Source: Candidatus Altimarinota bacterium (GTDB lineage Bacteria; Patescibacteriota; Gracilibacteria; UBA1369). From it: a stretch of DNA of 32,000 bases. Made by a program: the position numbers and the translations under genes. The stretch spans positions 127,651 to 159,650 of the forward strand of contig JBAZYK010000003.1 in NCBI GenBank assembly GCA_041659405.1, written 5' to 3'. A model generated the notes under the pieces. The model searched no databases. It was not told where the DNA came from and was given only the letters and a program-made list of their open reading frames with translations. Below are positions 3,351 to 26,455 of this stretch, piece by piece (positions within the stretch are counted from its first letter, which is position 1; each line of letters begins with the position of its first letter).

Positions 3351-3917
3351 ATGTCTACAACCATTTGGATCATTTTAGGAATAGTTGTCCTAATAGTTAT
3401 CTTTGCAATCGGCATCTACAACGGTCTTATTCAGCTTAAAAACAAGGTGGACGAAGCCTGGGCTGACATCGAGACACAACTCAAACGTCGTTATGACCTT
3501 ATCCCAAACATCGTAGAAACTGTCAAAGGTTATGCCACTCACGAAAAAGGCACTTTGGAAGAAGTGACCAAAGCCCGCTCGGCAGCCATGGGCGCAGGAA
3601 CTATGGAAGATAAAGCTCAAGCGGAAAATATGCTTTCCGGAACCTTAAAATCACTCTTTGCACTTTCCGAAAACTATCCACAATTACAGGCAAACCAGAA
3701 CTTTTTGGATCTTCAACAAACTTTAAAACAAGTGGAAGAACAACTTCAACTTTCACGCCGTTATTACAACGCTACAGTTCGTGATTTCAACGTTAAAATT
3801 GAAGTTTTCCCAAACAACGTTTTTGCCGGTATGTTCAACTTTACCAAACGTTCATTCTTTGAAGTTGGATCTGAAACTGAACGCGAAAACGTAAAAGTTT
3901 CTTTTGATGCCAAATAA
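3351..3917 (+). CDS. lemA: LemA family membrane protein
   Basis: 188 aa. N-terminal TM helix 'IWIILGIVVLIVIFAIGIY' followed by the characteristic LemA block 'YNGLIQLKNKVDEAWADIETQLKRRYDLIPNIVETVKGYATHEKGTLEEVTKAR ... RRYYNATVRDFNVKIEVFPNNVFAGMF'. Confidence 0.9.
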   Translation: MSTTIWIILGIVVLIVIFAIGIYNGLIQLKNKVDEAWADIETQLKRRYDLIPNIVETVKGYATHEKGTLEEVTKARSAAMGAGTMEDKAQAENMLSGTLKSLFALSENYPQLQANQNFLDLQQTLKQVEEQLQLSRRYYNATVRDFNVKIEVFPNNVFAGMFNFTKRSFFEVGSETERENVKVSFDAK

Positions 3918-5784
3918 GCCACTTTTGAACGAAGAACAAAAAGCGAAACTTACCAGGGCCGTCCGGGACGCCAAACAAAATACCTTCTTCAACGGAGGTA
4001 TTATTGCTTTTTTCCTGATAATTTTTGCCATCGGCTTTGTTACATTTGGCTGGCTGATGTACATGCAATGGCAATCCTCCAATACATCTACACAAAATAA
4101 CTGGAAAATCCCCGAATTCAAAGTAAACATGGATATTTACCAGGACGGCCGGACCTTTATTACCGAAAACATTCAAGCGGACTTCAGCCAAGAAAAGCAT
4201 CACGGCATTTTCCGCTACATTCCTCTTTATTATAATGACGATCAAAACCAGAAAATGGATCTGGGAATATATCTTCAAACCATTAGGGATGAAATAGGCA
4301 AAATCTGGACATACGACCAAAGTTATCTTCAGGATTCGATCTACTTAAAAATTGGCGATGCTAATGTTTATCTTAATTCGCTGGAAACTTATATTATAGA
4401 TTATCAGGTCAATCACGCCATTCGTTACTATAAGGATCACGATGAAATTTATTGGAACATCACCGGAAACGATTGGCCGGTAGCGATTGAACACACCGAA
4501 GCAAGCATTACCCTGCCAAAAGACCTGGCTGAAAAAGATTTAAAATTCACCTGTTTTACGGGGATAACCGGATCAAAAGACCAAAATTGCACACACAGTA
4601 TTGAAAAAGCCGAAGATGGCAGCCAAATTTTCACCTTTAAAGCTGATAACCTGAAAACTTTGGAAGGTTTAACTGTGGCAGTTGGCTTTCCTAAAGGTGT
4701 TATAAACGAAATCGCACCGGTTCCTTACCAAAGTGATTCATATTACCAGGGCTCTTCAAACGGAGACAATACACCAAATTGGACCATGATCTTCCTGGAA
4801 ATTTTTGTCCTGCCATTTTTGCTTTCCATTATTTACACAATTTTGTGGTTTAAAAATGGACGTGATCCCAAAGCAGATAAAACGGCCATCATGCCAATTT
4901 ATACGCCTCCGGCGGATTTAACCCCGGCAGAAATTGGTGCTTTGGTTAAAGATTATGTTGAAGAAAAAGACCTTTCCGCCACCATTGTGGATTTATGCGT
5001 GCGAGGTTATATGAAAATAAAAGAACTGGCCAACCACGATTTCCAGTTTATAAAATTAAAAGATTTTGCCAAAGATAATTCCTTGAAAGATTATGAAAGA
5101 GAGTTACTGCACAGCCTTTTTAAGGATTTCGATAAACGCAAGTTGAGCAGTTTAAAACAACATTTTTCTCAAAGTTTTGCGAAGATCAAAAAAATTATTT
5201 ATGAAAATTTAATTAAAAAAGGATTTTATGATTCTTCACCAGAAAAAATCATCGATAAATTCCAGGGATTGGGTATTGCCTTTATTTTCTTTGGAATATT
5301 TTTTATAGCTCCGGTCTCTTTGTGGATTAGCGGAAGCCTTATTTTGAGCGGAATTTTATCGGGCATTTTTGCTAAAATAATGCCACGCAAAACCAAAGCG
5401 GGAGTCAATATGCGTCAACAAATTTTGGGTCTGGAAGAATATATTAAAACTGCCGAAACCGATCGAATCAAATTTCAGGAAAAGGAAAATCTGTTCGAGA
5501 AACTGCTGCCCTATGCCATGGTTTTGGGCTTAACCGACAAGTGGACCAAAGCTTTTGCCGGCATTACCACTACCCCACCGGAGTGGTACGAAACCACAAG
5601 CTCCAGATCGATGGTCTTTTCCACGGACGTCTTCCTTTCGAATCTAAATGTAATGAGCACCAGCATCAGTGCAACCTTTTCAGCTCCGGCACCTTCCCAC
5701 GGCAGCGCCTTTGGAGGCGGTGGTGGCGGAGGCGGTGGATCTTCCGGCGGCGGAGGAGGCGGCGGTGGTGGTGGAGCGTGGTAA
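3907..5784 (+). CDS. DUF2207-family membrane protein, paralog A (N-terminal TM anchor, Gly-rich C-terminal tail)
   Basis: The ORF track starts at TTG 3904. The first ATG is 3907, which overlaps the lemA stop by 11 nt. Architecture: N-terminal TM, ectodomain motifs 'HHGIFRYIP' and 'HDEIYWNITGNDW', a TM plus 'WFKNGRDP', a cytoplasmic domain, further TMs, 'TAETDRIKFQEKENLFEKLLPYAM', and a terminal 'GGGGGGGGSSGGGGGGGGGGAW'. This layout is typical of DUF2207. Confidence 0.8.
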   Translation: MPNKPLLNEEQKAKLTRAVRDAKQNTFFNGGIIAFFLIIFAIGFVTFGWLMYMQWQSSNTSTQNNWKIPEFKVNMDIYQDGRTFITENIQADFSQEKHHGIFRYIPLYYNDDQNQKMDLGIYLQTIRDEIGKIWTYDQSYLQDSIYLKIGDANVYLNSLETYIIDYQVNHAIRYYKDHDEIYWNITGNDWPVAIEHTEASITLPKDLAEKDLKFTCFTGITGSKDQNCTHSIEKAEDGSQIFTFKADNLKTLEGLTVAVGFPKGVINEIAPVPYQSDSYYQGSSNGDNTPNWTMIFLEIFVLPFLLSIIYTILWFKNGRDPKADKTAIMPIYTPPADLTPAEIGALVKDYVEEKDLSATIVDLCVRGYMKIKELANHDFQFIKLKDFAKDNSLKDYERELLHSLFKDFDKRKLSSLKQHFSQSFAKIKKIIYENLIKKGFYDSSPEKIIDKFQGLGIAFIFFGIFFIAPVSLWISGSLILSGILSGIFAKIMPRKTKAGVNMRQQILGLEEYIKTAETDRIKFQEKENLFEKLLPYAMVLGLTDKWTKAFAGITTTPPEWYETTSSRSMVFSTDVFLSNLNVMSTSISATFSAPAPSHGSAFGGGGGGGGGSSGGGGGGGGGGAW

Positions 5785-5786
5785 CA

Positions 5787-5851
5787 GATCGCTGAAAGCG
5801 ATCCGCGCCCGCCCTAAAGCGGGCATAGCAAATAACTATCGCGCAGCGATA
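5787..5851 (+). other. Three consecutive GC-rich stem-loops in the DUF2207A-DUF2207B spacer
   Basis: GATCGCT-gaa-AGCGATC (5787-5803), GCCCGC-cctaaa-GCGGGC (5807-5824) and TATCGC-gca-GCGATA (5837-5851). None is followed by a U-tract. They begin 3 nt after the stop codon. Confidence 0.4.
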
Positions 5852-5887
5852 CATTATCAAAAACGAAAATTCATTTAATACCCCCCC

Positions 5888-7711
5888 ATGAAACTCACAA
5901 AAAAAATTGCGGCAGGAATAATTCTGATACTTACAATAACCCTGATATCCGCATTACATATTGGAAGTACAAATATCACAAAAGCCCAAGATTCCACATC
6001 TTTTGATGATTTTTCTTCTGATGTTACCTCCCCGGATTCCACCAATGATTGGAGCATCACAAATTTTGATGCCGATATTCAGGTTCAAAAAGACGGCTCC
6101 GTGTTGGTCGATGAGACAATCACTACCGACTTTCCACCGGAAAGTGAACACCATGGCATTTTCCGCTTTATACCAATTAATTATAAAGACGATTTTGGCA
6201 ATAATGTCTCAATCAAGCTAAAAGTTTTAAGTATCCAAGATACCAAAGGCAACGAATGGCCTTATGAAACCTCTTATTCCGGACAAAATATTACGTTAAA
6301 AATCGGTGATCCGGACAAAATAATTCATGGACAAAATATTTACAAAATAACTTATCAGGTTGATCGCGCACTTTTGTTTTTAAAAGATCACGATGAACTT
6401 TATTGGAACATCACCGGTGATCAATGGGAAACAGACATCCAAAAAGCCAGTGCCACCATTACCGTTCCTGCGGAAATTCAACAAAAAGATTTAAAAGCGG
6501 ATTGTTATACCGGCGCTTACGGCTCAACCGACAAAAAATGCGACCTTAAAATTCAAGATAATACCACAACGGTAACTTCAACTACCGACTTTAAATATGG
6601 TGAAGGCCTTACAGTGGCCGTTGCTTTCCCAAAAGGAATTATTAAAGAGCCAACCGCCCAGGAAAAAATTACGTGGTTTTTAGCAGACAACTGGGGGTAT
6701 TTCTTGCCGGTAATTGCCTTTATCGCCCTCTTTTCCCTTTGGTTCACACGCGGTCGTGATCCTAAAGAAGGCGTAAAAACGACCATAATGCCTTATTATG
6801 AAGCTCCGGATAATTTAACCCCCAGTGAAATTGGAACCCTGGTCGATGAAAAAGCCGATATGCAAGATATTACCTCCACAATTATTGATATGGCCGTGCG
6901 GGGGTATCTTAAAATTATCGAAATCCAGGAGAAAAAAATAATTTTCAACAAAACCGATTACGAACTGGAATTACAACAAGAATTTGAAAACGACAACAAA
7001 GTCCAGGAGCACGAAAAAGCTGTTCTAAGAGCCATTTTTGATGCTTCAAACAACTCAAAAGGAGCAAAAGTTAAACTCTCTACACTCGCCAATAAATTTT
7101 ACATGTTTATCCCGGGTATCAAAAAAAATATTTATGAATTAACGGTATCTAAAGGTTATTTCCCGGTAAATCCGGACAACGTTCGCAAAATATATTTAGG
7201 TGTTGGTATCGGTTTAATTGTTTTGGGATTTTTCAGTTTTATGTATTTCTCGAATGGCGGTTCTGTTTCAGTCCCCATTGGACTTGTTTTAAGTGGGTTG
7301 ATCATCATAATTTTTTCCAATTTCATGCCGATCAAAACCAAAAAAGGAGTTGAGATCTATTACAAAATAAAAGGCCTGAAAGAGTTCATCAATACTGCCG
7401 AAGCCGATCGCCTTAAATTCCAGGAAAAAGAAAATCTGTTCGAAAAACTGCTTCCTTATGCCATGGCCCTTGGAATTGCCGAAAAATGGTCCAAAGCTTT
7501 TGAAGGAATCTATAAAAATCCCCCAAGCTGGTATCAAAGCAGCAATCCAAACTTCATGAACAATTTTTCCACTTATTATTTTGTTCATAGCCTGAATTCG
7601 TTTTCCAACACAATGCAACAAACCCTGGCCTCCACTCCAAAATCATCCGGCGGAATTGGCGGAGGCTTTTCCGGTGGCGGCTTTGGCGGCGGCGGCGGCG
7701 GCGCGTGGTAG
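5888..7711 (+). CDS. DUF2207-family membrane protein, paralog B (cleavable signal peptide, Gly-rich C-terminal tail)
   Basis: 607 aa. Signal-like N-terminus 'MKLTKKIAAGIILILTITLISALHIG'. Same motif set as paralog A ('HHGIFRFIP', 'HDELYWNITGDQW', 'WFTRGRDP', 'TAEADRLKFQEKENLFEKLLPYAM'). Ends 'GGGFSGGGFGGGGGGAW'. Confidence 0.85.
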   Translation: MKLTKKIAAGIILILTITLISALHIGSTNITKAQDSTSFDDFSSDVTSPDSTNDWSITNFDADIQVQKDGSVLVDETITTDFPPESEHHGIFRFIPINYKDDFGNNVSIKLKVLSIQDTKGNEWPYETSYSGQNITLKIGDPDKIIHGQNIYKITYQVDRALLFLKDHDELYWNITGDQWETDIQKASATITVPAEIQQKDLKADCYTGAYGSTDKKCDLKIQDNTTTVTSTTDFKYGEGLTVAVAFPKGIIKEPTAQEKITWFLADNWGYFLPVIAFIALFSLWFTRGRDPKEGVKTTIMPYYEAPDNLTPSEIGTLVDEKADMQDITSTIIDMAVRGYLKIIEIQEKKIIFNKTDYELELQQEFENDNKVQEHEKAVLRAIFDASNNSKGAKVKLSTLANKFYMFIPGIKKNIYELTVSKGYFPVNPDNVRKIYLGVGIGLIVLGFFSFMYFSNGGSVSVPIGLVLSGLIIIIFSNFMPIKTKKGVEIYYKIKGLKEFINTAEADRLKFQEKENLFEKLLPYAMALGIAEKWSKAFEGIYKNPPSWYQSSNPNFMNNFSTYYFVHSLNSFSNTMQQTLASTPKSSGGIGGGFSGGGFGGGGGGAW

Positions 7712-7715
7712 AGGC

Positions 7716-10700
7716 CTAAAACGCAAAGACCCTCACAATAATCTTGGCAGCTTCACCGCGGGTGAGGTTGTTGTTTGGCCCAAACAGGTTTAACGGGTTT
7801 CCCTGGCCGTCAACATATCCGGAGATAAAGCTGTGATCAACCGCAAACGAAATGTATCTATAATACCACGCTGTTGCAGAAACATCAGTAAAAGTTAGCG
7901 CGTTTCCATGAATTTCCTGATCGGCATAGATTGTTGCCAAGACGACTTTTAGGGCTTCTGCTCGAGTGATTTGGTTAAACGGCAGGAAGTAATTTTTGGA
8001 ACCGACCACAACTCCCAATGATTTTGCTTTAGAAACGGCTGCACTAAACCAATCGGTTGTGTGTACATCAAAGAATGGATTTTCGGTGGCTGCCGGCAGT
8101 GTTGGGAACTGGCACTGCATCACAATTTTCACCAATTCCGCTCTGGAAATTGTATCATTTGGTCGATATTCGTTAAGGAGATTCCCGTTTGCATCTTTAT
8201 ATCCTTGAACATCACATTTCTGCTGGAGTTTTTCGATATAGGTTTCAGCCCAATGGTTTTGGGTATCTGTGAAAAGTGCTTGCGCTACCGGTTGTGTTTG
8301 AGGTTGTTGCGCCGGTTGCGCTGGTTGATTATTCTGAGTTGGCTGAGTATTAAAAATAACGCCACTGCCGCCGGTGGTAATCGTGAATGAATTAATTCCA
8401 AGTGCCGTACCGGCATTTCCGGTTGCATCGGTAACAAGAATAGTACAGCCGGAATGAGTTCCAAGACTCATTGATTGAAATGTAATAGTATTGTCACCGG
8501 AAATTGCGCTGGTGGTTAAGCTTAAACAACTTCCTGAATATGTGATTGTTCCAGCTTCATCAGAACTGAATGTATAATTAGGAGTTGAGTCGATGGTTGA
8601 ACTTGGAACTGCGAGAACTTCGGCTAAAGTTGGGGCGGTATTATCGATTGTGAATGTGGATCCGCTTGTTGGAACGGCTGTGATAACATTTTCCGCGACA
8701 TCGGTTCCAATCGACATTGAAACAGTTGCAGTTGCAATGTTTCCAGCCGGTACATCCAAATCATACGTATATTCCGTGGTACTAACTTTTGTCATGGCTG
8801 TTGCCGACAAAACCGCATTATCAACTGCAATTTTAACTACAGGTGAGTCTGCCATTGGTTCATTAAATGTTGCTTTGATTATTAATGTATTAGCGTTTCT
8901 AACTGATTCTGTTGAGGCGTATGTAACCCCGGCATCTTTTGAATATGTAATCGCTGCGGTTGGCGCGGTTGTATCAAAAGTCACCGCTGTTCTGCTAACC
9001 GCTGTTGCGGCGTTTCCCGCGTCATCGGTTGCGTTGAATGCAAATGTATAGACGGCTCCGCTAACCAATCCGCTGGAATCACTCGTACATCCGTTTGTTG
9101 TATCCGAAAGATCCAAGTTCGCATGTGCTCCGGTATTTTTCGCTGTACCGACTAACGTACAGGTATGCGGAGCGCTGCCATCTGCCGTTCCTGAAGTTTG
9201 TGAAATTAAAATTGTTCCACTCGCGACTGCTTCGCTCAATGTATAACTCACATCGGATGAAGTGGTGACATTATTTATTGAAGTACTTGCGGTTGGGCTC
9301 ACGCTGCTGAATACCGGGATAATTGTATCGATTGTGTAATCGCTTGTGTCGGTAACGGTTGTTTGGTTTCCTGCGTTGTCTGTAACGGTCACGGTCACAT
9401 TGTTGGTTGCATCATCTTGGCTGTCCATGGCGCCGGATAGTGATGTTGTCCAAGTATCTGATGAATTACTTCCAACCAAAGCCGTATCGCCAGCTTTAAA
9501 GTTTGCCGCATTAAAACTCACGGAAGAAATCGTGTCCGTGTTATTGTCGCCGGTCGCAAGTGTATCGTCCCAGGTTGGCACTGCGGTATTTCCATTCTTA
9601 AACGCGCCGCCCGTTCCCGTTGCTCCCGTTACGGAAATATTTGCCGCGGTTAATGTGGGCGCGATATTATCAACCGTCGCATTGGTTGTATCCGCTGCCG
9701 TAGTTGCATTTCCCGCATCATCCGTCGCTGTCACGGAAACATTTCTGTTTGTAGTGTCGATTATGCCTGCAATAACAGGAAAAGTTGCCGTCCAGGTTCC
9801 ACTTGAATTGGTTGCAGCGACTGCCGCTCCTCCTCCAAATTGGCTAAAATCAACCGTAACGGTTGAAATTGTATCCGAGTTATTTTGTCCTCCAGCGGTA
9901 TTATTCCAGGTTGCCGTTACAGTATCGTTAATCTTATACGCGCCGCCCGTTCCACTTCCTCCGGAAATTGAAATATATGCATCGGTCACAGTTGGCGGCA
10001 AAGTATCCACCGCAAAAGCTGAAGAATACATGGTTGTTCCGGTTGCTGTTCCGTTGTTTGGCGTGATCCGCAGCCAAACGGTTAAATCATTCGTGTTGGG
10101 AATATCCGTAGCCGCGTTCCAGGCAAATGTAAGGGCAACGGAGCCATCGTTATTTGTATCAATTCCGGAAATGGTATTGGTGGAAATAGTCACACCATTT
10201 CCCTCTCCATTTTCAGAAGCGGATGCAATTGTGGCGTTAACCCAGGTCACATTGTTTGTGGAATATTCTACAGAAACAGATGTTGTGCCCAAACCCGCAT
10301 CAACAATTGTTGAAGTGGCGGTGACAAGAGACGCGGAAGTCTGCGAGGCATTTGGTTTACTGGCGACCGGAGCGGTGGTGGCGGGAATGGTGGTGGTGTT
10401 GAGAATAACTTTCACATGGCCCACAGGGGAAGCTGAATCTGCTCCGGCAATATCAGTTTTCCCATCTGCATTAAAATCACCTGTGACTAAAACCCAATTA
10501 CCTCCTGTTGTATAGTCTGTCTTCGCACCAAAGGTTCCGTCTCCTACACCTAATAGGACTGAATCTTTGCTACCACTAATTCCTACAACAAGATCGGTTT
10601 CTCCATCTGCATTAAAGTCGCCTGTAGCTGTTCCAAATGTATGAGCCCCTATAGCAGTATTTGCTGCCGCACCAAAAGTTCCATCTCCAGTGGGAGAACC

Positions 10701-11573
10701 TAAGAGAACTGAAATGTTATTATCAGCATAATTTGCCACAAAAAGATCGAGTATGCCATCTGCATTGAAGTAGCCTGCGGCCATAGAGATTGAATTACCT
10801 CCTGTAATGTAGTTTGCTGCCGCACCAAAAGTTCCAAGTCCCGTACCTAATAAGACTGAGACGCCACCGGCAGTACCTTTTGCATCAGCCAGGTCAAGAT
10901 TACCATCACCATTGAAGTCGCCCATAATCAAATATTGTGGACCAGTTCCCGCGGCATAGTTTGTTGCCGTACCAAAAGCTCCATTTCCATCACCTAATAA
11001 AACTGAAATGTTGTTCGTGCTAAAATTTACCACAGCTAAATCGAGCTTACCATCACCATCAAAGTCGCCTGCAACAGCCACCATTGGAGCAGTCCCTACA
11101 GGGTAATTTACTGCTGTATTGAATGTCCCATCTCCTCTACCCAACAAAATTGAGACATTGTTATCACTATAATTTGGCACAGCAAGATCAGTTTTGCCAT
11201 CACCATTAAAGTCACCTGCAACTGATGAAATTGGATTTGCTCCTACAGCGTATGGCACCGCCGCACCAAAAGTCCCATTTCCAATGGAAGAACCCAACAG
11301 AACTGACACAGTGTTACCATAAACATCTGCTATAGAAAAATCAAAAATACCATCTCCATTGAAATCACCTTTGGTTATTGAATACGAACCATCTCCTTCG
11401 TTATAACTCGCATCCGCAGCAAACGTCACCGCCGCATGCGCCGATTTTGTTGATAACCCTAAAAATCCTATCCCAATAAATAAAAAGGATAACGCAAAAA
11501 TCCCTAACTTTTTTAAATTTGTTCCAAAGTTATAGACTGAATTATTTTCCATTTGTTTTTTATTTTTTTGCAT
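7716..11573 (-). CDS. Giant surface protein P1: signal peptide, 7 FG-GAP/VCBS repeats, Ig-like domain array, Q/P linker, 3 SLH domains
   Basis: 1285 aa. Signal peptide ending 'KSAHA|AV'. Seven repeats of '(G/Y)(D)F(N/D)(G/A)DG..D' with 'VSVLLG.G.GTFG' (about nt 10398-11411). Tandem domains of about 100 aa, each ending '(V/I/F)D(T/N)xxPT'. Linker 'QPTQNNQPAQPAQQPQTQP'. Three SLH-like units (nt 7719-8279): 'FTDTQNHWAETYI..', 'FFDVHTTDWFSAAV..ITRAEALKVV', 'FTDVSATAWYYRYI..LTRGEAAKIIV'. Confidence 0.85.
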   Translation of the reverse strand: MQKNKKQMENNSVYNFGTNLKKLGIFALSFLFIGIGFLGLSTKSAHAAVTFAADASYNEGDGSYSITKGDFNGDGIFDFSIADVYGNTVSVLLGSSIGNGTFGAAVPYAVGANPISSVAGDFNGDGKTDLAVPNYSDNNVSILLGRGDGTFNTAVNYPVGTAPMVAVAGDFDGDGKLDLAVVNFSTNNISVLLGDGNGAFGTATNYAAGTGPQYLIMGDFNGDGNLDLADAKGTAGGVSVLLGTGLGTFGAAANYITGGNSISMAAGYFNADGILDLFVANYADNNISVLLGSPTGDGTFGAAANTAIGAHTFGTATGDFNADGETDLVVGISGSKDSVLLGVGDGTFGAKTDYTTGGNWVLVTGDFNADGKTDIAGADSASPVGHVKVILNTTTIPATTAPVASKPNASQTSASLVTATSTIVDAGLGTTSVSVEYSTNNVTWVNATIASASENGEGNGVTISTNTISGIDTNNDGSVALTFAWNAATDIPNTNDLTVWLRITPNNGTATGTTMYSSAFAVDTLPPTVTDAYISISGGSGTGGAYKINDTVTATWNNTAGGQNNSDTISTVTVDFSQFGGGAAVAATNSSGTWTATFPVIAGIIDTTNRNVSVTATDDAGNATTAADTTNATVDNIAPTLTAANISVTGATGTGGAFKNGNTAVPTWDDTLATGDNNTDTISSVSFNAANFKAGDTALVGSNSSDTWTTSLSGAMDSQDDATNNVTVTVTDNAGNQTTVTDTSDYTIDTIIPVFSSVSPTASTSINNVTTSSDVSYTLSEAVASGTILISQTSGTADGSAPHTCTLVGTAKNTGAHANLDLSDTTNGCTSDSSGLVSGAVYTFAFNATDDAGNAATAVSRTAVTFDTTAPTAAITYSKDAGVTYASTESVRNANTLIIKATFNEPMADSPVVKIAVDNAVLSATAMTKVSTTEYTYDLDVPAGNIATATVSMSIGTDVAENVITAVPTSGSTFTIDNTAPTLAEVLAVPSSTIDSTPNYTFSSDEAGTITYSGSCLSLTTSAISGDNTITFQSMSLGTHSGCTILVTDATGNAGTALGINSFTITTGGSGVIFNTQPTQNNQPAQPAQQPQTQPVAQALFTDTQNHWAETYIEKLQQKCDVQGYKDANGNLLNEYRPNDTISRAELVKIVMQCQFPTLPAATENPFFDVHTTDWFSAAVSKAKSLGVVVGSKNYFLPFNQITRAEALKVVLATIYADQEIHGNALTFTDVSATAWYYRYISFAVDHSFISGYVDGQGNPLNLFGPNNNLTRGEAAKIIVRVFAF
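8958..9290 (-). repeat. 333-bp block 100% identical to 22454-22786 (inside P2)
   Basis: Base-by-base comparison at a constant offset of 13496 nt shows no mismatches. Both copies are flanked by a mismatch on each side. It encodes 'PTASTSINNVTTSSDVSYTLSEAVASGTILISQTSGTADGSAPHTCTLVGTAKNTGAHANLDLSDTTNGCTSDSSGLVSGAVYTFAFNATDDAGNAATAVSRTAVTFDTTAPT'. Confidence 0.95.
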
Positions 11574-11635: not shown

Positions 11636-11661
11636 AAAAACAACCCAAAAAGGTTGTTTTT
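11636..11661 (-). terminator. Candidate intrinsic terminator overlapping the uvrB stop codon
   Basis: Read on the minus strand: TAA-AAACAACC-tttttg-GGTTGTTTTT-g. The arms pair over up to 10 bp (an AACAACC/GGTTGTT core plus A:U extension) and run into a T-run. The stem is AT-rich, so this is a moderate call. Confidence 0.45.
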
Positions 11662-13678
11662 ACAATTTAAACTCCTCCCTAATCTGCTCGATTTCATCAC
11701 GAAGTTCTGCCGCTTTTTCGAATTCCATATTTTGTGAAGCCATGTCCATTTGCGCTCCCAGTTCCTCCAAAAAGCGTTTCATTTCTTCACGCGGGACTTT
11801 CTTTGGATCAATATGACGTTCACCTTTTGCCGCCCCTTTATTATGTTCCATCGCAATATCCTTAATCGCCTTCACAATTGTTTGCGGAGTAATTCCATGT
11901 TTTTTATTGTAATCCGATTGAATTTTTCTACGACGATTTGTCTCATCCATCGCCTTTTTCATGGCATCGGTTACATGGTGCGCATACATCACCACAAATC
12001 CGTTAATGTTACGGGCACAACGACCAATGGTTTGAATAAGTGCCGGCGCCGAGCGCAAAAAACCCTGTTTATCCGCATCCAAAATCGCAATAAAAGAAAC
12101 TTCCGGCAAATCCAAACCTTCACGCAATAAGTTAATACCGACCAAAACATCAAACTTCCCAAGACGTAAATCACGCAAAATTTCAATACGTTCCATGGTG
12201 TCGATATCCGAATGCAAATATTTCACTTTCACACCAACATCGGTCAAATATTCGGTCAGATCTTCCGATGAACGTTTGGTTAAAGTTGTAATCAGCACAC
12301 GCTCTTTTTTGGCGACGCGTTTTTGAATTTCATTGATCAAATCATCAATCTGATGTTCACTTGGACGAACCTCAACTTCCGGATCTATAAGCCCTGTTGG
12401 ACGAATAATTTGCTCAACAACATTGCCCCCGACTTTTTCCGAACTCAAACCAAAAACAAGCTCTTTTGCGCCCGCTTTTTTAAGTTCATATTGAGCCGGA
12501 GTCGCTGAAACATAAATCACCTGATTAATGGCCTCTTCAAATTCATCAAACTTTAGCGGACGATTATCATGCGCGGAAGGAAGACGGAAACCATAATCAA
12601 CCAAAGTCTGTTTGCGTGAATAATTTCCATTAAACATTCCCCCAACCTGCGGAATTGTCATGTGTGATTCATCAATAATCATCAAATAATCATCCGGAAA
12701 ATAATCCAATAAAGTGGCTGTAGGAGCGCCCGGAGCCCGTTTGCTAAAATAACGTGTATAGTTTTCAATTCCCGTTGTATAACCCGTTTCCAGCAAAATT
12801 TCCAAATCATATTCGGTGCGGGTTTTAATGCGTTCCGCTTCCAGCATTTTGCCCTGAGCCCTAAGCTCGTCATATCGAATCACCAAATCTTCACGAATTC
12901 GTGCAGCAGCAGCCTGAATTTTATCTTTACTGGTCACATCATGCTTGGCCGGAAATATTTTAACCGATTGCAGCTCCCGAATTTCTTCACCCGTAAACGA
13001 ATCGGCCTCACTGATGCGCTCAATCTCATCTCCAAAAAACTCCAAACGGAAAATCGTATCACGATCCGGTGGAAAAATTTCCACAGTATCGCCCAAAACA
13101 TGGAACATACCCTGTTTAAAATCCATCTGCGAACGGGAATATTGGATGTCACTAAGCTGTCTTAAAAGTTTGTCACGCTTGCGCTCGTCCCCCACCTTAA
13201 TTTCCATGGCGAATTTGGAGTAATCCTCAACATCACCCAAACCATAAATACATGATACCGAAGCCACAATCAAGACATCACGGCGCGTTAATAAATTCAC
13301 CGTAGCCGCATGACGAAATTTGTTAATTTCTTCATTGATGGACGCGTCTTTTTCAATATAAGTGTCCGTAGACGGCAAATACGCTTCCGGCTGATAATAA
13401 TCGTAATAAGAAACAAAGTAGCTGACCGCGTTATTCGGGAAAAATTCCTTAAACTCCGCGCAAAGCTGAGCCGCCAAAGTTTTGTTATGAGCAAGCACCA
13501 AAGTTGGCCTCTGCACCTGCTGAACCACGTTTGCAATAGTGAAAGTTTTCCCGGACCCCGTCACCCCAAGCAAAACCTGCTGCTTCTCCCCTTTTTCCAG
13601 ATTCTTGATCAAATAATCAATCGCTTGTGGCTGATCTCCGGTCGGCTTAAACGGTGAGACTAACTCAAATTTACTCAT
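11660..13678 (-). CDS. uvrB: Excinuclease ABC subunit B
   Basis: 672 aa. Full-length match to hallmark UvrB sequence: '[14 protein letters not shown]', Walker A '[10 protein letters not shown]', '[14 protein letters not shown]', 'DESHMTIPQ', '[15 protein letters not shown]', and the C-terminal UVR motif '[11 protein letters not shown]'. Confidence 0.97.
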
Positions 13679-16452: not shown

Positions 16453-16574
16453 AAAATTCATTTAAATTGAGCAGATACAAGGCGAAAATAAAAAATCGAC
16501 CGCAGTGTATTTAGTTATACACGAGGATCGATTTTTTGTTTTCAACGAAGTAGATGCCAATTTAAATGAATTTT
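16453..16574. repeat. Nested inverted-repeat structure at the nrdJ 3' end
   Basis: A 17-nt perfect inverted repeat 'AAAATTCATTTAAATTG' (16453-16469) pairs with 16558-16574. It encloses a second imperfect hairpin ATCGACCGCAGTGTAT/ATACACGAGGATCGAT (16495-16532). That inner hairpin is flanked by an A-run on one side and a T-run on the other. The right outer arm overlaps the nrdJ stop codon (16573-16575). Confidence 0.8.
16484..16544 (-). terminator. Probable intrinsic terminator of nrdJ
   Basis: Minus-strand reading: ATCGATCCTCGTGTAT-aactaa-ATACACTGCGGTCGAT followed by TTTTTTATTTT. The inner stem GTGTAT/ATACAC and outer stem ATCGA/TCGAT are separated by an internal loop. Confidence 0.55.
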
Positions 16575-20253: not shown

Positions 20254-20644
20254 AGATGGGGGGAAATTAAAGGGAGTAGATGGGGAAAAACATTTTGGGG
20301 ACTCTCTAAGTCCTTTCTTCCGTGTTGAGTCCACAAAAGTGAAGAAAGAAGCAAGCCCACCACATATAGGTGAGCCTATTAAGATAAACCACAAGATGTT
20401 GATGGACGTCCCCTAAGATAGTCTTTTGGAAACTCTGCGTCAAGGAAACTGGATTCAAAATTCTTTGCGCTACAATTCGTTTATTATGTGATATACAAAA
20501 GCCAAACGCACAGAACAAAATGGCACATCAGGCAAGGGCTCATCGATCAAAATCCTTTGCTGAAAAACACTTGAAAATGGTACCATCACCAGCCCTCTTT
20601 TTTACAAAAATTTTCCTCTGGTTTAAATTCAACGCTGACGAGCC

Positions 20645-23600
20645 CTAAAACGCAAAAACCCTCACAATAATCTTGGCTGCTTCACCGCGGGTTAGGTTAT
20701 TGTTTGGGCCAAACAGGTTTAACGGGTTCCCCTGGCCGTCGACATATCCGGAAACGATGTTTTTAAGCACTGCGGTATAAATATATTTTCCATACCACGC
20801 GCCCTTGATTGTATCCGTAAATGTTAATGCCCCATCAACAATTTGCGCTTCAAGATAATTAACCAAAAGTATCATTTTGGTGGCTTCTGCACGGGTAACA
20901 GGCTGGATCGGCTTAAAGATTGTTCCATTTTGATAACCAATCACAATATTTAAGATTTTTGCTTTGGCCACGGCAGGTGCAAACCACGAATCTTTTGGCA
21001 CATCTTTAAACGGATCATTTAGAGGATTTGGAAGTGTCGCATATTTGCACTGCATAAACATTTTTGCATATTCGGCTCTGCTGATTTGGTTGTTTGGTCG
21101 ATATTCATTAAGTAGATTTCCATCTGCGTCTTTGTATCCTTGAACATTGCATTTCTGTTGGAGTTTTTCGATATAGGTTTGTGCCCAGTGGTTTTGAGTA
21201 TCTGTGAAAAGTGCTTGTGTTGCCGGTTGAGTTTGAGGTTGTTGCGCCGGTTGTGTTGGCGGTTGCGTTGCCAGTTGTGTTGGCTCTTGCGTTTGGGTGG
21301 TTGGAGTTGTTGGTGTAGTAGTTGTTGTTGTTGTAGTCGAGCTTCCGCCGCCACCACCACCTCCGCCGCTGCTGCTGCTCTGATTAACGATTATGGTGTC
21401 TGCGGTCACTGCCGAATCTTGATATATTGTGGCATCACCGCTTGTTGTGACTGTAATGGTATATGCTCCCGTAGAGCCAATCGACCCGGATGTGACTATA
21501 TTTTGAATTGTACAGCTTTCTGCAGCCGCTGCCTGTTCACTTCCACCACTCCTGGCAAGAATAACTGTTTGTGAAGAAACTGTTGTCGTGATTGAACCAT
21601 CCATTGTTGAACAAACTCCCGCTGAAGCTGATGCAACATTAAACCCTGATCCAAATGTAATCTTGATTTTGTCGGTAGCTGCAATTGTTCCATTTGGTGT
21701 AAAGGTGGCTGTTGCCGTTGTGGATGATCCAATTCCATACGTGGATAACGACACATCTGTTGATGATAATGATGCTGCGGTTTCAACAACCGTATTATTG
21801 TCATGAACCAGGTTTGTATTGGACGCCATATCTGTCACCGCCAATGCGTCTACATCCAGCACAACCGCTCCGCCATCTCCTCCTGTTGTCCCTGAAATAG
21901 CTATTGCGGCTGCACGTTGCGCGGCGGTTAATGTGAAAGTTAGACTCGTCGCGTCCACATTGGCAGGCGCGGCTGTCAGGCTCACGACATCTGTTCCGGT
22001 TATATTATTTAGATGAAAACCACTCGCAACCGTTGCGCTTGCATCCATGATTTCACTGAAAGTTGTCACCATTACAGCCGTACCATAGTTAATTGTTGTT
22101 GAAACTACGACCGGTTTGGCCGCATCGGTAAGATTCACCGCTGTCCAGGTTTGTAACTGGTTTCCGGCTGCATCCGAAATTTCTCTGGCTCCATTATCGG
22201 TATACGCAATAGTTGGAGCTGTTGTATGGCTGGTTATGTTTGAATTTCCCAATGTTCCCAAAACCAGACGCACCGTTGAAGTATCAGGATAACTCAGGGT
22301 TCCGGAAGTCAAAACCGATCCGGTAATATCATTGGCCACATACGCAAAATCGGCAATTGTTGCCGTCTGCGTTGAAACAGGTTCCGAAAGGGTTAATGTA
22401 ACACGATCAACTCGTCCATCGTTATCTGAATCTTCATAAACTTTTGCGGAAATGGTTGGCGCGGTTGTATCAAAAGTCACCGCTGTTCTGCTAACCGCTG
22501 TTGCGGCGTTTCCCGCGTCATCGGTTGCGTTGAATGCAAATGTATAGACGGCTCCGCTAACCAATCCGCTGGAATCACTCGTACATCCGTTTGTTGTATC
22601 CGAAAGATCCAAGTTCGCATGTGCTCCGGTATTTTTCGCTGTACCGACTAACGTACAGGTATGCGGAGCGCTGCCATCTGCCGTTCCTGAAGTTTGTGAA
22701 ATTAAAATTGTTCCACTCGCGACTGCTTCGCTCAATGTATAACTCACATCGGATGAAGTGGTGACATTATTTATTGAAGTACTTGCCGTTGGGCTCACGC
22801 TGGTGAAAACGGGAATGATTGTATCGATTGTGTAATCGTTTGTGCCGGTTGCAGATGCGGTGTTTCCTCCATTATCCGTGATGGTTACGGTCACATTGTT
22901 GGTTGCATCATCCTGGCTGTCCATGGCGCCGGATAGCGATGTTGTCCAAGTATCTGATGAATTACTTCCAACCAAAGCCGTATCCCCCGCTTTAAAGTTT
23001 GCTGCGTTAAAGCTCACGGATGAAATTGTATCCGTATTATTATCGCCGGTCGCAAGTGTATCGTCCCAGGTTGGCACTGCGGTATTTCCATTTTTAAACG
23101 CTCCACCGGTTCCCGTTGCTCCAGTCACGGATATTTTTGCGGCGGAAATTGTTGGCGCAACATTGTCCACGCTGATCGCATCGGAAGCTGTTGTTGCAGT
23201 GTTCCCCGCGTTATCGGTGACGGTGATTATAAATGTCAGGGCACCGGTATCCAATGCGCCGGCGGTAACAACCGTAGATTCCGAAGTAGCCGCAAGTGTA
23301 GCCTGGCCGGTTAATGTTGTTAAATTTATTGTTGTTGTATCGGTATCGGAAGCATCAAGCGTAACTGCACTTTGTGTAACTTTATCCTGATTTGTTGAAC
23401 CGTCATTTAACGCAGCAACACTCGCCGTCCCATTATCCGTTGAAATCGTTAACGTTCCATTTGCGCTGATGATTGGCGCAACGCTATCCACAGTAGCATT
23501 TGTTGTATCAGAAGCCGTTGCTGCGTTTCCCGCATCATCGGTTGCAGTGACGGAAACGTTTCGGTTTGTTGTATCAATTGCTCCTGCAGCTATTTCATAT

Positions 23601-26455
23601 GTTGCTGTCCAGGTTCCGGATGAATTTGTCGCGGAAACCGCCGCTCCTCCACCAAATTGGGTGAAGTTAACCGTTACGGTTGAAATTGTATCTGAATTAT
23701 TTTGGCCTCCTGCCGTATTATTCCAGGTTGCCGTTACAGTATCGCCAATCTTATATGCTCCTCCAGTTCCGCCCGCGCCACTTATGGAAATATATGCGTC
23801 GGTCACCGTTGGCGCCAAAGTATCCACAGGAAAAAGAGTTGAAGTTTGTGTTGTTCCATCTACAGTGTCATCATTTGGCTTTACGCGGAAATAAACCGTT
23901 GGATCATCGGTATTTGGAATGTCGGTTGCGATGTCCCAATTGAAGGTTAAAGCTATATCACCATTAAAATCCGTATCAATATCGGAAATTAGACCGGCTA
24001 CGGAAGTTGCACCGTCGCCTTCCAGCCCTTCACTAATAGATGAAACCGTGGCGTTAACCCAATCGGAATTATTCAAAGAATATTGAACGGTTAGATTTGT
24101 TACATCGTTGTCCGCATCTGCAACGGTGGTTACAACCGCCACAGCTGTTGCTGATGTTTGACTTGGCAACGCGTCACCGGTAATAGCGCTTGCCGTTGGA
24201 GCAGTATTAGACACATTTATAAATGAAACTTTATCTACAGAAGCCGTTTCCCCAGACGCTCCCTGCGTAAAAGCCCGAACATTAAAAGTTCCGGCAGTAA
24301 GTCCGGACAAACACGGATCAGTCAAATCCCCTGCGGCACTTGCGGTAGAAATCGTATTATCACCTAAGGTAAGTACGCCTCCGGAACAATAATTCCAAGT
24401 GACACCAGCATCATCAGAAACCTGAAATTTCACCACGGCAGATCCGGTTGTTGATGTTGTAGCTGCAAATGTTGTAATTGAATTAAATGTGTGACCAACA
24501 GTAAATTTCAAATTCTCAGAAACGGTTGCGGGAGCCACTTCAGCAGCAAACTCAACAGTAGGTTCGGTTGTGGCATATGAACGAATATAAAGATCATCCA
24601 TATAACTAATACCGCCATTATAACGAGAAAACCCAACTTTCAAAGGCGTTTCCGAAAGATAAACACTATCAAAAATCAAATTGAAAATAGTTCTATCATT
24701 CGGATTACTCAGATAATATTTCGCTCCAGTGCCTTTAAGCTGTATTTTTAACCAATAAGTTGAATTACAATTGAAAGTACCACCCCCCCCTTGGCTAACC
24801 CCACCCTCATAAACCTCACGAGTTCCACTGGTGGTAGTTGCAGCACTAAAATATATGCCATGAGTAATAGCGGTATAACTCACACCACTACCATTGTTCC
24901 AGCCAATCATAGTATTGTCCAAACCAATATCGCAAGTAGGTGTGTACTTCACGCGTAACTCTTTTGTTCCCCTGGCAAAAGTACTATCAGTAAACAAAGC
25001 CGTTTCACCCCAGGCTGAAGTTCCGGCATTAATTAAAATTTGATTATTCTGTTCAATGTTAGATCCAACATCAGTCTCATCCCATTTAGCCGTATTGATT
25101 GTTAAACCTGTGAAATCATCAAAGAAGTCAAAAACATTAGCACCATTGCTCGCATCTGCAGCAGCAGCATTTCCATAGTACATATAAATAGTTGCTGTTC
25201 CAGTGGCTGCAATCGTAGGCACTTCAACCCAAAAAGTGGCACTGGTACTATCCACTTTTGTCTCCAGCCAGTGATCAATTAAAGTTTCCCCATCCGAACT
25301 TGTAAAACGGATATCATCAAAATCAGCCTGCATATCGGTATCATAAGTAACAGCAACCTCAACCTGGAAATTAGTTAATACAGAAGCAGTACTGTTGGTA
25401 ACCGTAACGGCTTTTTGCTTAGTCCAACTGGCATTATACCAATTAGAAGTTATCACTTGCGCAGTACCACCGGCATAAGTAAAAGCAGCAGCGTCACTTT
25501 CTGTATAAAAATTAGTTGAATTAAAAGTCCTGCTTGTTTTTATAACGGCATTAGCGGTCGGAGCAGCATCCTGAATAGTAAAATTGCTTTCACTTGTCAC
25601 GGCATAATTATTACCATCATTATTTGATGAAATTCTTATTTTAACTGTCGCGCAAGTCGCCCCACCACAAACAGTTGTGGCGGAAGGAACAGTCCATACA
25701 TAAGATTTAACCGCGGCAGCATCAGCAACAGAAGCTTCAGAAGCATCAATAGTTGAAGCTGTCGCAAAACCATCTGTTGAATATTCCAGCTTAACAGTTT
25801 CGCCGGCCCCACCGCCGGTACTTCCCCATTCTACGTTTTGCACAGTTCCACCCTGGACAGCGCCACCTACATTAAAAGTATATAATTCAATCGCTCGCGG
25901 AACATAAAAAGTTGAAGCTGCTGACCACGACCCCTCTCCATCGGAATTGGCAAAAAGAATATGCCAATAATAAGTTGTATTATAAGCCAATTGAGTTCCG
26001 CCATAAGAAATATCCGCACTCCTGGCCGCGTCACTTATATCAACGATATTAATTGATCCGGATTGCCAAGTGACGCCCGTAGTAAAATTACCGGTACCTC
26101 CATCAACTGTAGGATCAGCAGCAACCTCAATTTTTGCAGTTATACATTGTCCAAGTGGAGCATTACAAATTGCCGAAAAAACCGGAGAAAGACTCGTTAA
26201 ATTGGTTGGATTAACATCACCGGCCTGCGCATTTGTACTATTGGAATAAAGCGTTGTAGGCGCAGAAGGAACAACCGCACTTACCCTTTGGACAATACTT
26301 CCAAAATTTTGAAAAATAAAAAATAAAAATAAAAAAAGAACCAGTGAAGCTCGCTTCACTCGCGGTAGAAGTAGACACTTCAGGCGTGGAAGAAAACTAT
26401 TCCTTCCTATAAATTTACTTCTTTTTTTATTCTTGATTTTAAGTGAAAATTTCAT
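20645..26455 (-). CDS. Giant surface protein P2: signal anchor, FN3-like module, Ig-like, DUF2341, LamG/concanavalin-like, Ig-like array, S/G/T linker, 3 SLH domains
   Basis: 1936 aa.
- N-terminal hydrophobic anchor 'ASLVLFLFLFFIF'.
- Residues ~64-186 follow the 'P.FSA...W.SG...Y.G..L...T.YYW...' pattern.
- Residues ~339-435 match the DUF2341 pattern ('W...R..VTV......L.NFQV.V.......DF.DIRF...DG..L.HW.E.........FWVEVP........IYMYYGN').
- Residues ~440-627 are a LamG-like beta-sandwich.
- Many domains of about 100 aa end 'VD..APT'.
- Linker 'SSSSGGGGGGGGSSTTTTTTTTPTTPTTQTQ...'.
- SLH triad at nt 20648-21214. Confidence 0.85.
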   Translation of the reverse strand: MKFSLKIKNKKRSKFIGRNSFLPRLKCLLLPRVKRASLVLFLFLFFIFQNFGSIVQRVSAVVPSAPTTLYSNSTNAQAGDVNPTNLTSLSPVFSAICNAPLGQCITAKIEVAADPTVDGGTGNFTTGVTWQSGSINIVDISDAARSADISYGGTQLAYNTTYYWHILFANSDGEGSWSAASTFYVPRAIELYTFNVGGAVQGGTVQNVEWGSTGGGAGETVKLEYSTDGFATASTIDASEASVADAAAVKSYVWTVPSATTVCGGATCATVKIRISSNNDGNNYAVTSESNFTIQDAAPTANAVIKTSRTFNSTNFYTESDAAAFTYAGGTAQVITSNWYNASWTKQKAVTVTNSTASVLTNFQVEVAVTYDTDMQADFDDIRFTSSDGETLIDHWLETKVDSTSATFWVEVPTIAATGTATIYMYYGNAAAADASNGANVFDFFDDFTGLTINTAKWDETDVGSNIEQNNQILINAGTSAWGETALFTDSTFARGTKELRVKYTPTCDIGLDNTMIGWNNGSGVSYTAITHGIYFSAATTTSGTREVYEGGVSQGGGGTFNCNSTYWLKIQLKGTGAKYYLSNPNDRTIFNLIFDSVYLSETPLKVGFSRYNGGISYMDDLYIRSYATTEPTVEFAAEVAPATVSENLKFTVGHTFNSITTFAATTSTTGSAVVKFQVSDDAGVTWNYCSGGVLTLGDNTISTASAAGDLTDPCLSGLTAGTFNVRAFTQGASGETASVDKVSFINVSNTAPTASAITGDALPSQTSATAVAVVTTVADADNDVTNLTVQYSLNNSDWVNATVSSISEGLEGDGATSVAGLISDIDTDFNGDIALTFNWDIATDIPNTDDPTVYFRVKPNDDTVDGTTQTSTLFPVDTLAPTVTDAYISISGAGGTGGAYKIGDTVTATWNNTAGGQNNSDTISTVTVNFTQFGGGAAVSATNSSGTWTATYEIAAGAIDTTNRNVSVTATDDAGNAATASDTTNATVDSVAPIISANGTLTISTDNGTASVAALNDGSTNQDKVTQSAVTLDASDTDTTTINLTTLTGQATLAATSESTVVTAGALDTGALTFIITVTDNAGNTATTASDAISVDNVAPTISAAKISVTGATGTGGAFKNGNTAVPTWDDTLATGDNNTDTISSVSFNAANFKAGDTALVGSNSSDTWTTSLSGAMDSQDDATNNVTVTITDNGGNTASATGTNDYTIDTIIPVFTSVSPTASTSINNVTTSSDVSYTLSEAVASGTILISQTSGTADGSAPHTCTLVGTAKNTGAHANLDLSDTTNGCTSDSSGLVSGAVYTFAFNATDDAGNAATAVSRTAVTFDTTAPTISAKVYEDSDNDGRVDRVTLTLSEPVSTQTATIADFAYVANDITGSVLTSGTLSYPDTSTVRLVLGTLGNSNITSHTTAPTIAYTDNGAREISDAAGNQLQTWTAVNLTDAAKPVVVSTTINYGTAVMVTTFSEIMDASATVASGFHLNNITGTDVVSLTAAPANVDATSLTFTLTAAQRAAAIAISGTTGGDGGAVVLDVDALAVTDMASNTNLVHDNNTVVETAASLSSTDVSLSTYGIGSSTTATATFTPNGTIAATDKIKITFGSGFNVASASAGVCSTMDGSITTTVSSQTVILARSGGSEQAAAAESCTIQNIVTSGSIGSTGAYTITVTTSGDATIYQDSAVTADTIIVNQSSSSGGGGGGGGSSTTTTTTTTPTTPTTQTQEPTQLATQPPTQPAQQPQTQPATQALFTDTQNHWAQTYIEKLQQKCNVQGYKDADGNLLNEYRPNNQISRAEYAKMFMQCKYATLPNPLNDPFKDVPKDSWFAPAVAKAKILNIVIGYQNGTIFKPIQPVTRAEATKMILLVNYLEAQIVDGALTFTDTIKGAWYGKYIYTAVLKNIVSGYVDGQGNPLNLFGPNNNLTRGEAAKIIVRVFAF
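22454..22786 (-). repeat. 333-bp block 100% identical to 8958-9290 (inside P1)
   Basis: See the partner feature. Flanking homology at roughly 90% identity extends to about 24165 in P2 and about 10345 in P1. Confidence 0.95.

Follow-up and report, generated by a model that had tools for sequence, protein, structure and literature searches.

A 333-nt block identical in two predicted SLH-anchored surface protein genes of a Candidatus Altimarinota bacterium, probably left by recent gene conversion of one Ig-like stalk module

How do two surface protein genes with different heads come to share 333 nucleotides (nt) without a single difference? The question is raised by a 32,000-nt stretch, here called the window, of contig JBAZYK010000003.1 in assembly GCA_041659405.1 of a Candidatus Altimarinota bacterium. 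Two genes in this window, gene A and gene B, are both complete open reading frames (ORFs) with a start codon, a signal peptide, a head, a stalk, and an SLH anchor, and each of them holds one copy of the block in question, P1 in gene A and P2 in gene B (Table 1). Pairwise comparison and a repeat search of the window agree that the copies are identical at 333 of 333 bases and that the window contains these two copies only. P1 and P2 are direct repeats 13.5 kb apart, both on the minus strand, in frame, and codon aligned. The bases that border them differ (C/T at the low-coordinate end, G/C at the high-coordinate end), so the description in an earlier note on this DNA, of a match at every base in the same reading frame with a mismatch beyond each end, is confirmed. 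The near-identity of P1 and P2 is certain. The answer that we favor, and regard as probable, is a recent nonreciprocal recombination (ectopic gene conversion) that copied one immunoglobulin-like (Ig-like) stalk module between A and B.

The stalk is built of Ig-like modules of ~105 to 130 residues with D-x-x-A-P-T linkers between them, and the part that A and B share runs in the order X-Ig1-(B-only extra)-Ig2-Ig3. The block is Ig3. It begins 7 codons past one D-x-x-(A/P/I)-P-(T/V/I) linker, its last codons are the next linker, and it is therefore almost exactly one module. To follow the divergence along the shared stalk, synonymous (dS) and nonsynonymous (dN) divergence were calculated for each module by the Nei-Gojobori method. 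Module X is homologous between A and B at the protein level only, with saturated dS; Ig1 is 79% identical at the nucleotide level, with a dS of 0.96; Ig2 is 86.5% identical, with a dS of 0.55; and the Ig3 block has a dS of 0, with 0 changes at 84 synonymous sites. The 52 mismatches of Ig2 fall in 45 differing codons, 32 of them synonymous, and identity varies from 78 to 96% per 100-nt window. The breakpoint between Ig2 and the block is sharp, as 6 mismatches lie in the final 31 nt ahead of the block and none thereafter. On the other side, homology stops right past the codons for D-T-T-A-P-T (GATACAACCGCGCCAACC), where gene A continues with 'AAITYSKDAG...' and gene B with 'ISAKVYEDSD...' and the ungapped identity is 26 to 29%, the random level. 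The block is thus the final module of the shared stalk, and its gene-3' end coincides with the end of homology.

This layout changes the picture drawn by the earlier note in three respects. The flanks, described there as about 90% identical, come near that value on the high-coordinate side only, over the 384 nt of Ig2, and fall to the random level on the low-coordinate side. The rest of the two genes was called unrelated, which holds for the modules after the block but not for Ig1 or for the linker and SLH tails, which are ~70 to 72% identical. Finally, the block is not an identity island within diverged paralogs; it lies at one margin of the homologous segment and stops at the linker where homology ends.

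Could chance or selection on the protein account for such a run? When the 52 mismatches were permuted over the 717-nt ungapped alignment, none of 200,000 runs reached 333 identical nt and the longest gave 190; the analytic chance estimate for a run of this length is 4e-13. The genes also offer two internal controls for selection on the protein. Ig2 contains a run of 84 identical amino acids (aa) whose 252 nt differ silently at 20 positions. Likewise, the last 35 residues of the two proteins are identical, yet their 108 nt hold 7 silent differences, each of them at a third codon position. Stretches of identical protein outside the block thus carry 6.5 to 8% silent differences, and at this silent rate, the probability of 333 difference-free nt is about 1e-12. 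Because the identical-protein runs of Ig2 and of the C terminus still differ silently, constraint at the protein level is insufficient to explain 0 differences in 333 nt. Chance and protein-level selection are excluded as causes of the identity. The absence of change at 84 synonymous sites sets a 95% bound on the dS of the block of < ~0.036, and therefore, the block is at least 15 times younger than the divergence of Ig2.

Table 1. Genes, stalk modules, and linkers at the locus, in window positions
Feature	Positions	Strand	Details
P1	8958..9290	minus	Gene A residues 762-872; Ig3 stalk module, 111 codons, C-terminal linker D-T-T-A-P-T
P2	22454..22786	minus	Gene B residues 1224-1334; Ig3
Gene A	7716..11573	minus	1285 aa; Pfam FG-GAP_3 8.9e-42, SLH 2e-26; NCBI MFA5829323.1
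Gene B	20645..26455	minus	1936 aa; Pfam DUF2341 6.1e-27, SLH 4.2e-27; NCBI MFA5829330.1
Ig1	A 9675..10016; B 23492..23833	minus	Gene coordinates 1557-1906 (A) and 2622-2971 (B)
B-only extra Ig-like module	23171..23491	minus	105 aa, between Ig1 and Ig2, D-x-x-A-P linkers at both edges
Ig2	A 9291..9674; B 22787..23170	minus	384 nt; dN 0.054
A-specific modules right after the block	8325..8957	minus	No homology to B at that position
B-specific modules right after the block	21260..22453	minus	No homology to gene A
Linker and three SLH	A 7719..8324; B 20648..21259	minus	~70% in codon alignment, 71.6% by BLAST; dS 1.07
Linker boundaries	9990-10007, 9654-9671, 8958-8975, 8628-8645, 23807-23824, 23471-23488, 23150-23167, 22454-22471		D-x-x-A-P
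Genes between P1 and P2	11660..20394	minus	UvrB 11660-13678, two hypothetical genes, class II ribonucleotide reductase 16573-20394 (Pfam)

The two products are predicted from their domains to be wall-anchored surface proteins that differ in their heads and are paralogous only in part. The record of the gene A product is named 'FG-GAP-like repeat-containing protein [Candidatus Gracilibacteria bacterium]', and the NCBI records of both products belong to a MAG contig of 159,650 bp. Gene A encodes, in order, a signal peptide, at least 6 FG-GAP repeats as a propeller head, module X, Ig1, Ig2, Ig3, two further Ig-like modules specific to A, a P/Q-rich linker, and three SLH motifs. The gene B product starts with a signal peptide and an Ig/DUF2341 head (DUF2341/LamG-like), continues with X, Ig1, the B-only module, Ig2, and Ig3, and, after ~400 aa of modules specific to B, closes with an S/G/T/P/Q linker and the three SLH motifs. 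In each protein, three stretches match SLH (Pfam PF00395). The signal peptides were read off the translations, in which a basic N terminus leads into a hydrophobic stretch and a site resembling A-x-A ('STKSAHA/AV' for A, 'RVSA/VV' for B). No csaB-like gene, for the pyruvylated secondary cell wall polymer that is the SLH ligand, was identified among the large ORFs of the window. By its place between differing heads and the wall anchor, the Ig3 block most probably serves as a stalk or spacer element. An AlphaFold model is all-beta over the block, with 7 strands and a predicted local distance difference test score (pLDDT) of 55 to 84, and is poor elsewhere (mean pLDDT, 58.9). Its Foldseek matches, which include the Bap C region (3.9e-5), SraP, SiiE, and FnIII tandems, may be read as 'tandem beta-sandwich adhesin-like modules' and no further than that. 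Neither Pfam nor PDB sequence searches assigned the block module to a family. In the linker of gene B (window 21223-21335), direct repeats with short periods (12 nt and 9 nt) encode an S/G/T/P run, 'SSSSGGGGGGGGSSTTTTTTTTPTTPTT'; this tract is slippage prone and could differ in length among strains.

Given these proteins, gene conversion would have overwritten the Ig3 of one gene with the copy of the other, the paralog 13.5 kb off serving as the template, presumably in RecA-dependent repair. One end of the tract would lie within the linker between Ig2 and Ig3. The other would be the last homologous base, with heteroduplex formation or branch migration blocked by the unrelated sequence downstream. 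The outcome would be a homogenized stalk module, that is, concerted evolution and not diversification. The fall in dS from 0.55 to 0 at a sharp breakpoint, with silent differences retained elsewhere, bears out the proposal of recent gene conversion or homologous recombination made in the earlier note. For the mechanism, we infer conversion rather than crossover; a crossover at these direct repeats would remove every gene that lies between them, UvrB and the class II ribonucleotide reductase included, and would be lethal, so only noncrossover products should persist. The steps in dS of 0.96, 0.55, and 0 toward a common boundary suggest that the segment was homogenized more than once.

Several points weigh against gene conversion. 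Classical conversion needs homology on two sides, but this tract has one of its ends at the limit of homology, an outcome that would likewise follow from a one-sided illegitimate event facilitated by homology. No orthologs of A or B were found in related genomes. The sequences of P1 and P2 are the consensus of a short-read assembly, in which bubble popping might mask a few true differences between the copies. The other assemblies represent a near-clonal population and are independent as data, not as lineages. Finally, the junction from the upstream part of gene B into the block is seen only in the contig of the window.

The last points touch on a further question. Is the second copy real, or was the identity made by the assembler? 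An artefact could have arisen if a block present at one locus was spliced into the other or if copies that truly differ were collapsed. The source is a metagenome-assembled genome (MAG), and the block is a place where assemblies break: five contigs from four other assemblies end inside it, as does a partial protein of a second NCBI MAG (MFA6343106.1, or P0122; 454 aa), which begins 41 residues into P1, where its 138,011-bp contig ends. The risk of collapse or chimerism raised by the earlier note thus materialized as breakage. However, a single-copy sequence would leave assemblies unbroken, and a copy diverged to the level of Ig2 would assemble separately, again without a break. The pattern of the ends is also informative. 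In Logan assemblies of two sequencing runs, SRR6484324 and SRR18595301, k=31 contigs from the A-downstream side (L087 and L088) end at window 8987, 30 nt (k-1) into P1, and the predicted B-downstream contig, starting 30 nt inside P2 and with a 612-aa product from contig position 1, was found in both runs (L090 and L091). Contigs that end k-1 inside the block imply that its last 31-mer has both A and B successors in the reads; two independent read sets therefore each contain the 3' end of the block followed by sequence specific to A and by sequence specific to B. Another Logan contig (L085), from the B-upstream side, stops at window 23063, after 30 of the 50 nt in a run common to A and B in Ig2, because the same k-1 rule applies at that shared run. 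A MEGAHIT k=141 contig (ENA ERZ27249449:k141_1136201), which differs from the window at 1 of 21,573 positions (window 1651), begins at window 22574 and joins 121 nt of P2 to B-downstream sequence, and the same contig holds gene A with the entire P1. At the very least, the block's 3' end is truly duplicated. The direct repeats form an X-R-Y-R-Z arrangement that allows one linear path using all unique segments, although the join from B-upstream into the block, confined to the window's contig, leaves some room for an artefact. So does the behavior of the k=141 contig, which passes through P1 although the 333-nt repeat exceeds k and stops inside P2, unlike what a simple exact 333-nt repeat would produce. 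Altogether, an assembly artefact is very unlikely. Remote from the observations, too, is an identity kept by selection on the DNA or RNA itself, as a regulatory RNA, an antisense gene, or an array of binding sites. A 333-nt element conserved at the nucleotide level is a formal possibility without direct support, and it would need all 84 synonymous sites to be kept while an equally constrained neighbor shows 8% silent change. The window has no match to Rfam families, and the antisense ORFs differ between the copies, with one at 8593-9051 over P1 and none over P2. We consider selection of this kind extremely unlikely.

Two other explanations accept the identity as real and recent and differ from conversion in what was exchanged and why. 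A gene without Ig3 might have gained the module, by a homologous crossover at the Ig2 end and an illegitimate or microhomology join at the linker DNA; such homology-facilitated illegitimate recombination, or template switching, would create the homology boundary in the same event. The block ends at the last base of a linker motif, as acquisition would have it; each module boundary of A and B has a motif like it, encoded for the most part by GCG-CC(A/C) as well; the B-only module is likewise a whole-module indel between two linker copies; and Ig3-type modules occur in many contexts in other Patescibacteria proteins, as fits a shuffled cassette. However, stepwise dS values that lead to one boundary are more simply produced by successive tracts over a segment that already held Ig3, and the Ig2-Ig3 pair is also present in a Patescibacteria protein (P0085), so the pair is old. 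Moreover, no other place in the window matches the linker motif with 3 or fewer mismatches, and microhomology partners are of ≤8 nt. Acquisition of the module is therefore unlikely, though of some weight. The earlier note went further and saw a possible mechanism of surface variation, i.e., programmed antigenic or host-range variation by regular exchange of cassettes. Both products are exposed and wall anchored, the bacterium is probably host attached, the stepwise dS suggests repeated exchange in the segment, and Peribacteria are reported to possess large extracellular proteins with strain variation, plus S-layer proteins (PMC4736985). The locus would also share gene conversion and a surface-exposed product with the known cassette systems (Neisseria pilE/pilS, Borrelia vlsE, Anaplasma msp2, Treponema tprK, and Mycoplasma MgPa). 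Those systems pair one expression site with a large number of silent, partial cassettes and diversify the members of a clone, whereas A and B are two full genes, each with its own start, signal peptide, distinct head, and anchor, and the window contains no truncated or silent cassettes. The unit exchanged is a stalk module, not a head, and the result is identity rather than diversity. The ORFs of ≥150 aa in the window include no recombinase, reverse transcriptase, or invertase. All assemblies that extend into the block, drawn from at least 3 data sets, agree there with the window in their consensus, minor variants being invisible in a consensus. Programmed variation is thus not borne out, and we hold it to be highly improbable. 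The same ORFs contain no reverse transcriptase domain, and the copies are identical, without adenine-specific mismatches; a diversity-generating retroelement target was accordingly rejected.

Other candidates were tried for the block and set aside. An RNA element as the cause of the identity was ruled out by the absence of Rfam matches. A phage or mobile-element origin was ruled out as well, as one exact 40-nt pattern had no match in viral contigs and the window holds no mobile-element genes. Scans for promoters and terminators gave no excess over shuffled controls. The contig ends at 121 nt in P2 (window 22574) and at 123 to 125 nt in P1 (window ~9080-9082) are another matter. Neither equals k-1, and an explanation by assembler k-1 was dropped since the numbers do not fit; low k-mer coverage may lie behind these odd ends, or else a minor variant situated ~122 to 126 nt from the gene-3' end of the block.

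If gene conversion copied this module, do the linkers have a part in it? Every module boundary in A and B carries a D-x-x-(A/P/I)-P-(T/V/I) linker, and all structural differences between the two stalks are of whole modules, bounded by linkers. The D-x-x-A-P-T linker DNA (GCGCCAAC-type) of Ig-like modules might then be a preferred recombination joint, at which whole modules are repeatedly copied between differently headed adhesins, an idea that we rate as quite unlikely. If it were true, the dS values of 0.96, 0.55, and 0 would record nested events, and the remodeling of attachment proteins would be typical of the lineage and could underlie the strain variation of large extracellular proteins in Peribacteria. 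As for codon use, the D-x-x-A-P linkers are encoded with GCG-CC(A/C) in 6 of 7 cases, while GCT is the prevailing Ala codon in the other Ala-Pro dipeptides of A and B, and no more than 26% of Ala codons are GCG. This bias hints at shared or homogenized linker DNA, the cases being few and not independent. As a repeated recombination signal, the linker motif was set aside in view of these few cases and of the lack of other near copies in the window.

Among known systems, the closest case appears, by analogy, to be that of Leptospira ligA and ligB, which are near-identical from -266 to +1890, with identity ending in the seventh Ig-like domain, and for which gene conversion aided by proximity has been invoked (PMC7821625). 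Both pairs are neighboring genes for surface proteins with tandem bacterial Ig-like domains, and in both, DNA identity halts abruptly within the array and gives way to unrelated sequence. The differences are considerable. The identical part of the lig genes spans ~2.1 kb with the promoter and the 5' end, so that the N termini are shared and the C termini differ, whereas in A and B it is a single internal 333-nt module, with both the heads and the downstream modules differing. A and B also have an SLH anchor instead of a lipoprotein anchor, their domains are not Big_2 and have no Pfam model, and the lineage is Patescibacteria. More generally, ectopic gene conversion and concerted evolution are known in bacterial paralogs, including Helicobacter babA/babB, tuf genes, and rRNA operons, and are said to have been treated together by Santoyo and Romero in 2005. 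The likeness lies in nonreciprocal copying between dispersed paralogs of one chromosome, which leaves a tract free of silent differences in diverged genes; in those examples, however, homology extends on both sides of the tract, while the A/B tract ends where homology ends and its unit is about one domain. Campylobacter fetus sap and the Clostridioides difficile cwp/slpA cassette are wall-associated families with a conserved anchor and recombining paralogs. There, the shared part that recombines is the anchoring domain or a promoter-bearing segment, in contrast to A and B, whose SLH anchors are more diverged (dS, ~1.07). The event at this locus is thus of a known and ordinary kind, in a new lineage.

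That lineage lends the case its biological interest. Large surface proteins of the candidate phyla radiation (CPR) are thought to mediate attachment to host cells, and to our knowledge, almost nothing is known about how they evolve. A full-text literature search yielded no paper that joins the CPR or this group, gene conversion, and surface proteins. The A/B block offers a clean and datable example of single-module concerted evolution in a CPR bacterium. Its practical weight is greater than the biological one, as an exact 333-nt direct repeat fragments short-read assemblies predictably and truncates gene calls in public MAGs.

Where else do these genes and modules occur? A synteny search anchored on UvrB in 185,579 species-representative genomes returned 80 loci, the best UvrB being 80% identical at the amino acid level, in a Candidatus Peribacteria MAG, which points to a Patescibacteria/CPR bacterium as the source; no homolog of A or B was found near UvrB at any of the 80. 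Nor were orthologs found in a protein collection of 5.8 billion sequences or in a representative set of 1.84 billion. At 90% identity clustering, gene A is represented by the 454-aa fragment P0122, truncated at the block, and gene B by P0124, an unrelated 49-aa peptide; because of these representatives, sequences nearly identical to A and B are hidden from representative-based searches. A scan of the JGI metagenome collection (without the source contig) with the Ig2 and Ig3 protein found two distant loci, 70% and 48% identical in amino acids, both for Ig2 only. At the DNA level, no close relative was found in JGI metagenome contigs with protein-derived patterns or in viral contigs with the 40-nt pattern. 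Protein searches, three of them word-indexed and one an exhaustive HMMER run, returned hundreds of single-module matches to giant repeat proteins of many phyla and no close ortholog. The block module is a member of a very large, unmodeled family of ~105-aa repeats, one 3876-aa representative of which has 37 matched stretches. Its nearest single modules, 74 to 76% identical, come from Komeilibacteria and Patescibacteria proteins (P0041 and P0085), the latter being the one that carries the Ig2-Ig3 pair. The Ig1-type module ('DTLAPTVTDAYISISG...GAYKIGDTVTATWNNTAGGQNNSDTISTVTV...') is 75 to 84% identical in amino acids to single modules in proteins annotated as Opitutaceae, Shewanella, Pseudoxanthomonas, Kaistia, and others (P0026, P0012, P0078, P0020, P0028, and P0035). 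Such conservation across phyla is unusually high for an adhesin repeat, and transfer of modules between phyla is possible.

The ORFs are long and intact under translation table 11, so the organism uses the standard genetic code, and the remaining window has ordinary chromosomal content. The class II ribonucleotide reductase has 1273 aa, with the barrel domain in two stretches and a C-terminal TSCPD domain, and it may carry an insertion, either an intein or an additional domain. On the other side of gene A, at window 3351-7711, a LemA gene is followed by two tandem paralogs of DUF2207 membrane proteins (626 and 607 aa), the second of which has a Gly-rich tail and a stop codon 4 nt from that of the convergent gene A.

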